From IMG/VR virus record IMGVR_UViG_2645727669_000018: 43,235 nt of DNA, one strand, 5' to 3'. Shown piece after piece: positions 3,081-3,854 of the stretch. The notes under the pieces are model-generated. The model had not been told where the DNA came from. It worked only from the letters and a program-made list of their open reading frames with translations, and did no database searches. Origin of the DNA: a virus. Lineage: Duplodnaviria; Heunggongvirae; Uroviricota; Caudoviricetes. Both the position numbers and the translations under genes were made by a program. Each line of letters opens with the position of its first letter. Within the stretch, counting starts at the first letter, position 1.

Positions 3081-3854
3081 ATGGATATTACTGAGTTTCC
3101 TTCTGGAGTAATTGAACACCTTGGCTGGTATGTATACCGATTGATTGATCCGAGGGACGGAAGCACCTTCTATGTAGGGAAAGGCAAAGGTAACCGCGTA
3201 TTTGCCCATATGCGCGGTGAAGTGGCAGCGACTGATGATGACGAGTTACTGAGCAACAAGCTAAAGCAAATTAGAGAAATAAGGTTAGCAGGACTTGAAG
3301 TTATCCATGTCATCCATCGACACGGAATGACTGATGAAAAGACGGCGTACGAAGTTGAAGCTGCACTTATTGATGCCTACCCTGGGTTAACGAATATCAT
3401 GAATGGTGCTGGCAGCAATGAATTCGGCGCCGCGCATGTCAAAGAGTTGATAGCAACATATCAACCCGAAACCATAACATTTCATCATAAAGCATTAATG
3501 ATTTCCGTTAACAGAAGTGCAAAGGATTCAGAGCTTTATGATGCGGTTCGATTTAGCTGGCGCATTAATGTCTCTCGCGCCAGCCAAGCAGAAGTCATTC
3601 TTGCTACTGTAAGGGGAATCGTTCGAGGGGTTTTCATTGCTGATAAATGGCTCAAATCAACACGTGAAAATTTCCCTACGATGAAATACTGGGACGAGGA
3701 TCCTGACTTTGAGGCAACACAAAGTTCTCGCTATGGTTTTGAAGGCCGAGAACCCCCACCTGAAATAGCAAATCTTTATCTTGGAAAAAAAATACCAGAT
3801 GAATTAAGAAAAAAAGGAGCTATGTCCCCGGTCCGTTACTCACCTAATTTTTGA
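3081..3854 (+). CDS. GIY-YIG nuclease-domain protein with uncharacterised C-terminal domain
   Basis: N-terminus WYVYRL...[15 protein letters not shown] followed by conserved-looking Glu/Asn positions fits the GIY-YIG catalytic fold; about 150 aa C-terminal region unrecognised. First in-frame ATG at 3081 preferred over the TTG at 3030. Confidence 0.6.

Follow-up and report, generated by a model that had tools for sequence, protein, structure and literature searches.

A CMoRE (PD-T4-3) allele as cargo beside pin in an intact e14-family prophage

The gene at positions 3081 to 3854 (+ strand) of the 43,235-nt stretch of viral DNA analysed here (hereafter the window) is almost certainly an allele of CMoRE, also known as PD-T4-3, which an intact e14-family prophage carries as cargo at its end near pin. 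Publications already cover the gene along with its family, mechanism and structure, and the allele is common, so that this is known and not a new finding. PD-T4-3 was first found in E. coli ECOR68; its discovery dates from 2022, its confirmation in a native host from 2025 and its structure from 2026. The window gene itself is therefore a routine example of a known defence enzyme and carries little weight, apart from its value for annotation: the RefSeq 'LEM-3-like' entry can become CMoRE/PD-T4-3. The only part of the present analysis that may be undescribed is the variability of the slot in which the gene resides.

Identity of the gene at 3081-3854

The gene is an intact and uninterrupted ORF of 257 codons plus stop (ATG at 3081, stop at 3852-3854). 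The same 774-nt CDS is annotated by RefSeq at near-identical loci, under the label 'LEM-3-like GIY-YIG domain-containing protein'. An in-frame TTG at 3030, which would add 17 residues, was ruled out as the start, as RefSeq, both PDB constructs and the phage homologues described below begin at the ATG. The initial annotation had described a 257-aa protein with a GIY-YIG N-terminus and an unrecognised C-terminal part of about 150 aa. The first point was confirmed by Pfam, which identified the PF22945 LEM-3-like GIY-YIG domain at residues 28-110 (E 2.1e-14), at the N-terminus only. The second was correct in so far as Pfam gave no match in the C-terminal ~150 aa, but this domain has since been solved and characterised in CMoRE. 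None of the NCBIfam models matched the protein.

Full-length comparison gave a clear assignment. The PADLOC PD-T4-3 model (PDLC04031) matched residues 1-256 over 256 of its 256 positions with an E-value of 2.9e-139, and PHROG 5356, whose function is given as unknown, also matched over the full length. A phmmer search of PDB sequences with the window protein returned exactly two proteins, both CMoRE (Liu et al., Nat Commun 2026, PMC12923530): that of E. coli O157:H7 (9U75/9U8D, E 1.7e-171), with 98.1% identity and five substitutions over 257 residues, and that of E. coli APEC O1 (9U7U/9U7Z, E 5e-150), with 84.8% identity. These matches to the CMoRE family far exceed chance. The five substitutions that separate it from 9U75 (T51A, E55D, Q169K, N197H and P225A, window residue first) all lie outside the residues named as functional. 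E55 and N197 of the window protein agree with the other crystallised allele, 9U7U, while Q169 and P225 are seen in neither crystallised protein. In the RefSeq alleles nearest to the window protein, the differences are T133I and P225A.

Every sequence feature by which a CMoRE/PD-T4-3 protein is recognised was found, namely full-length similarity, the GIYxY-YIG motif, the catalytic Arg and Glu, the acidic loop, Y127 and V92/L96. The GIY-YIG nuclease domain (3081-3425, +, limits approximate) carries the GIYxY-YIG motif as GWYVY...FYVG, with tyrosines Y17 (3129-3131), Y19 (3135-3137) and Y31 (3171-3173), the three being essential in CMoRE (PMC12923530). The other catalytic-core residues are R39 (3195-3197), E93 (3357-3359) and N105 (3393-3395), numbered from the present alignment, the text of PMC12923530 giving no numbers. 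The acidic run of the autoinhibitory loop, D52-D53-D54-E55 (3234-3245, +), was read from the sequence; it is DDDE in both the window protein and 9U7U (APEC O1) versus DDDD in 9U75. The C-terminal 5hmC/5ghmC-sensing domain, approximately residues 126-257 (3456-3851, +), includes Y127 (3459-3461) and differs from that of 9U75 by just three substitutions (Q169K, N197H and P225A). V92 and L96 of the tetramer interface, R80 and Y127 are all present.

Conservation was examined further in an alignment of eight sequences, comprising the window protein, both crystallised CMoRE proteins and five homologues of full length with 30-45% identity, four from the jumbo phages Moabite, OBP, N1M2 and Survivor and one from the phage-plasmid PhiR41_1. 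Invariant positions were Y17, Y19, Y31, G33, K34, G35, R39, H43, E93 and N105 in the N-terminal part, and included W160, G179, W190, R217, K236, P239 and R252 in the C-terminal part.

Such full-length homologues, 30-45% identical, are encoded by jumbo phages infecting Serratia, Pseudomonas (OBP), Klebsiella (N1M2) and Pantoea, as well as by a phage-plasmid from E. coli (L009:1501-2265, L010:1492-2253, L011:1498-2244, L013:1489-2256 and L012:2456-3223), where depositors labelled them as homing nuclease or hypothetical. Catalytic residues and C-terminal domain are retained in them, whereas the autoinhibitory run of four acidic residues is missing. The locus is conserved among OBP, N1M2 and Survivor, the homologue lying upstream of a gene annotated as transcriptional regulator or DNA-binding protein, which is directly adjacent in OBP and Survivor and separated by one small ORF in N1M2. 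The jumbo-phage homologues might serve as weapons against co-infecting phages with modified DNA.

Expected activity of the window allele and alternative readings

The properties of CMoRE have been described by Liu et al. (PMC12923530). It is a single-gene system which, under its native promoter, lowers plating of T2, T4 and T6 about 10^5-fold; cells carrying it survive infection at high MOI, showing direct defence and not abortive infection. The strength of protection depends on the locus, being weak for the APEC O1 allele and strong for the O157:H7 locus, each under its native promoter. The purified enzyme requires Mg2+ or Mn2+ and binds and cuts DNA containing 5hmC or glucosyl-5hmC, not C or 5mC; consistently, T4(hmC) remains sensitive and T4(C) escapes. 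Cleavage at sites of the form CN11/N9G leaves 3' overhangs of 2 nt and needs two modified cytosines, with no strict sequence demand beyond these. According to the crystal structures, the GIY-YIG domain at the N-terminus contains one additional tyrosine (GIYxY-YIG), and a 15-residue insertion with four consecutive acidic residues covers the active site; upon replacement of these four residues by alanine, activity increased, ordinary DNA was cut and the protein was toxic. CMoRE forms a tetramer whose assembly depends on V92/L96. Its C-terminal domain is without known structural relative, and 5hm-dCTP is bound at the edge of this domain, where it is hydrogen-bonded to the main chain of residue Y127 (all PMC12923530). 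A Capnocytophaga homologue, 48% identical, degrades T4 DNA and not T4-GT7 DNA, also cuts Mu DNA, which has modified adenine, and is inactivated by active-site mutations (PMC12366544). In a native host, the clinical isolate NILS69, deletion of PD-T4-3 led to sensitivity to Tevenvirinae (10.1101/2024.12.20.629700).

From its sequence, we infer that the window allele shares the 5hmC/5ghmC-dependent cleavage and the protection against T-even phages of the 98% identical O157:H7 protein. Judging by these near-identical proteins, the C-terminal domain would bind DNA carrying 5hmC or glucosyl-5hmC and pass over C and 5mC, a dimer within the tetramer would read two modified cytosines about 21 bp apart (CN11/N9G), and the GIY-YIG domain would introduce a double-strand cut leaving 2-nt 3' overhangs. 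The acidic loop over the active site would bar ordinary host DNA. The expected outcome is that incoming T-even phage DNA would be degraded directly, without abortive infection. As CMoRE does not act on 5mC, methylation by the neighbouring Dcm-type enzyme would not be expected to cause self-restriction.

Expression of the window gene in the lysogen is assumed, probably from the ~200 bp which travel with it. This non-coding stretch (2883-3080, +), at the start of which homology to the locus of O157:H7 strain SS17 begins, presumably contains the native promoter. It is about 96% identical to the O157:H7 locus. A scan of positions 2600-4000 for sigma-70 consensus promoters and terminators gave nothing above shuffled expectation around the CMoRE gene.

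This last result could be taken as a sign of a decayed or re-specified allele, that is, a CMoRE relative which is silent, inactive or shifted in its substrate range in the window prophage. The activity of native promoters does vary among alleles (PMC12923530), Q169 and P225 are found in neither crystallised protein, and the Capnocytophaga homologue cleaves Mu DNA as well (PMC12366544). We nevertheless regard such a loss or shift as very unlikely, given an intact ORF in which every named functional residue is kept, and an upstream region of about 200 bp with ~96% identity to the O157:H7 locus, from which the native promoter gives strong defence; moreover, Q169 and P225 fall in a variable part of the C-terminal domain. 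That the protein is a housekeeping repair nuclease, for example a UvrC-like fragment, is so improbable that it can practically be set aside. Structurally, its GIY-YIG domain is indeed nearest to that of UvrC (PMC12923530), the product of a core gene which also has UVR, RNase H-like and (HhH)2 domains, but the protein matches neither UvrC nor its other domains in NCBIfam and Pfam, has a C-terminal sensor domain of its own and is accessory prophage cargo, present in 16% of E. coli genomes. The initial annotation had itself proposed that placement in a UvrC-like repair family, or loss of the catalytic Arg and Glu, would speak against its reading of the gene; Pfam and NCBIfam gave no UvrC-family placement, and both R39 and E93 are conserved.

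A free-standing GIY-YIG homing endonuclease, spreading by cutting alleles that lack it, had been suggested as one of two options for this gene. A weak match to PHROG 314 'homing endonuclease' (E 0.0021) and the label 'putative homing nuclease' given by depositors to jumbo-phage homologues point in this direction. The full-length match is instead to a defence family with demonstrated modification-dependent activity, and Pfam detects no sequence-specific DNA-binding module of the I-TevI type. Unlike a patchily distributed homing gene, the homologue keeps a single location, beside the same regulator genes, in OBP, N1M2 and Survivor, and the window gene occupies a fixed prophage cargo slot. Its C-terminal domain senses modification and not sequence, and the CMoRE cut site has no strict sequence requirement beyond the two modified cytosines. 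We thus consider homing extremely unlikely and abandon this suggestion. The other option, a replacement defence nuclease, is supported by the 98% identity to CMoRE and the full-length PD-T4-3 match.

The prophage end beyond pin

The window as such corresponds to an intact prophage: genes for baseplate, tail, head, lysis, replication and immunity are all present, and the integrase gene lies at 39048-40220. Alignment with the K-12 genome showed that it is colinear with the cryptic prophage e14, through blocks corresponding to pinE (92% nucleotide identity), ymfQ/jayE (97%), the terminase remnant (98%), ymfL/ymfM (96%) and ymfH/xisE (91%). The alignment ends at window position 3910/3911, one base past the pinE stop, where e14 continues into mcrA. 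The pin-type serine invertase gene (3912-4502, -; Pfam Resolvase and HTH_7) thus marks the end of the shared e14-family backbone, and the CMoRE gene lies in the slot which holds mcrA in e14, as had been noticed at the outset. The two genes differ in strand relative to pin, CMoRE being transcribed towards it and mcrA away from it.

Several other features of the window were noted. Beside pin, an invertible tail-fibre segment (4493-6354) contains two opposed sets of gp53-like fibre C-termini and assembly genes, a layout shared with e14, Mu and P1; in L001 the annotation marks them as frameshifted. The DNA-circularisation and tape-measure genes are separated by a low-GC insert (~33-38%) at 11417-11947, whose 176-aa product has no Pfam or PADLOC match. 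In the closest relative, L008, a different 'OB-fold protein' gene is found at this spot, which constitutes another small variable slot. No defence-model match was obtained in the segments unlike the closest relative (11417-11947, 24380-25162, 26786-28198, 36021-37591 and 40262-41041). Beyond the integrase lies an IS21 element, with IstB at 41434-42168 (-) and IstA at 42213-43235 (-); a PADLOC 'DrmD' match at 41434-42168 (E 2.3e-91) was rejected, as Pfam identifies the IS21 IstB ATPase and the IstA transposase is adjacent.

As originally described, the CMoRE gene is flanked by pin on one side and by a restriction-modification (R-M) pair on the other. The latter consists of an EcoRII-type type II restriction endonuclease (1-1209, +; Pfam EcoRII-N and EcoRII-C, PADLOC REase_II E 1.5e-233) and a Dcm-like C5-cytosine methyltransferase (1244-2719, -; NCBIfam NF007772, 927 bits, Pfam DNA_methylase and DNA_meth_N). 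Window positions 1-2719 thus hold a complete EcoRII-type pair, CCWGG-type by family and about 80% identical to plasmid-borne EcoRII systems.

We examined the spread of the cassette by megablast among 5426 complete E. coli genomes. With positions 2720-3911 as query, the DNA was present at >=90% identity (nearly all 95-99%) in 870 genomes, which corresponds to a CMoRE frequency of 16%, or about one genome in six. The cassette 2883-3911 is carried by about 810 genomes, and the cassette together with the R-M pair (query 1-4600, at least 80% covered) was retrieved from only ~240. In O157:H7 strain SS17, homology to the window begins at position 2883 and CMoRE lies beside pinE without the R-M pair. 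CMoRE is therefore its own module of about 1 kb (2883-3911) and the EcoRII-type pair a second one. The same stretch 2883-3911 adjoins pin without the R-M pair in O157:H7 and in many genomes, so that CMoRE has no obligatory partner, and the R-M pair, missing at many CMoRE loci, is a separate system. Together, the two would cover unmodified as well as hmC- and ghmC-containing DNA.

To describe the slot itself we surveyed eleven e14-type loci, the window included. Eight cargo sets were found (seven when the two CMoRE arrangements, with or lacking the R-M pair, are taken as one): mcrA; CMoRE alone; CMoRE and the EcoRII R-M pair; a DUF4365 protein and a hypothetical; an FRG/PDC-S15 protein and Septu PtuAB (PtuA/PtuB); a DUF2335 protein and small ORFs; and two more sets of hypotheticals. 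At the variable-cargo loci L002, L003, L004, L005, L014, L015, L016 and L017, the sequence is again homologous to the window from a point no more than ~35 bp from the stop of pin (window 3875-3911). P2-like prophages also carry pin-like invertases, but with tail genes on the far side, and the cargo slot is therefore specific to the e14-type layout. The end comprising the R-M pair, CMoRE and pin is found on prophages at different sites, ssrA for L001 and tRNA-Thr/proA (thrW) for L008, e14 (L002) being at icd; the same cargo end is thus combined with different integrase modules.

Taken together, these observations allow the tentative proposal, to which we give slightly less than even chances, that the few kb beyond pin in e14-family prophages are a dedicated exchange site for anti-phage cargo and that CMoRE with the EcoRII R-M pair is an assembled layered island. 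On such a site the HNH enzyme McrA, the GIY-YIG enzyme CMoRE, Septu, PDC-S15 and uncharacterised genes may replace one another, and the island formed by CMoRE and the EcoRII pair may span unmodified, hydroxymethylated and glucosylated DNA. The variability of the slot suggests a cargo hotspot, for defence genes or morons, deserving a census, although this is a modest finding and to be expected of prophage ends. A shallow search of the literature retrieved no description of an e14 or pin-adjacent defence hotspot, which does not prove that none exists. Uncharacterised genes that other strains carry in this slot may reasonably be viewed as candidate new defence genes.

Comparison with known systems

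The window protein resembles the CMoRE proteins of O157:H7 and APEC O1 in length, architecture, GIYxY-YIG motif, acidic loop, tetramer interface and Y127, and shares with the O157:H7 gene the prophage neighbourhood beside pinE. It differs from the O157:H7 locus by the EcoRII-type R-M pair on its far side and by the five substitutions relative to 9U75. Two other groups of enzymes are functionally comparable, the PvuRts1I/AbaSI family and GmrSD. Like CMoRE, PvuRts1I recognises a pair of modified cytosines and cleaves at a set distance between the two, but its sensor is SRA-like, and the nuclease folds of both groups differ from that of CMoRE. In the PDB sequence search no similarity of the window protein to PvuRts1I/AbaSI or GmrSD was detected, only the CMoRE entries being returned. 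What these enzymes have in common with CMoRE is the 5hmC/5ghmC substrate class and the logic of T-even restriction, as treated in part in the discussion of PMC12923530.

With homing endonucleases of the I-TevI type and with UvrC, CMoRE shares the catalytic core of Tyr, Tyr, Arg, Glu and Asn. Unlike these, it possesses the extra tyrosine (GIYxY), the 15-residue acidic insertion and an unrelated C-terminal domain, and the window gene stands outside any intron, intein or repair context.

The occupant of the same slot in e14, directly beyond pin at the prophage end, is EcoKMcrA (RglA). McrA, for which RglA is the older name, also restricts phage with non-glucosylated hmC. As stated in the initial annotation, McrA is an HNH restriction enzyme for modified DNA: it is a type IV enzyme with an N-terminal sensor, which restricts C5mCGG-modified DNA (PMC12707154). 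The same review ties the mnemonic 'restricts glucoseless phage' (rgl) solely to an unrelated E. coli B locus. Like McrA, the CMoRE of the window is a single-polypeptide type IV enzyme against modified cytosine with separate sensor and nuclease domains. The order of these domains is reversed, however, McrA having its sensor at the N-terminus and its HNH domain at the C-terminus, and the sequences are unrelated. The PADLOC mREase_IV model, which matched K-12 McrA with an E-value of 6.5e-203, gave no match to the window protein, in which Pfam finds no HNH domain. The two enzymes differ also in specificity, since CMoRE ignores 5mC and cuts glucosylated hmC too, whereas McrA targets C5mCGG (PMC12707154), and their genes lie on opposite strands relative to pin. 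CMoRE is thus a functional analogue and not a homologue of McrA, and the sole wider point to be drawn is that the same prophage slot holds two unrelated type IV enzymes directed against modified cytosine.
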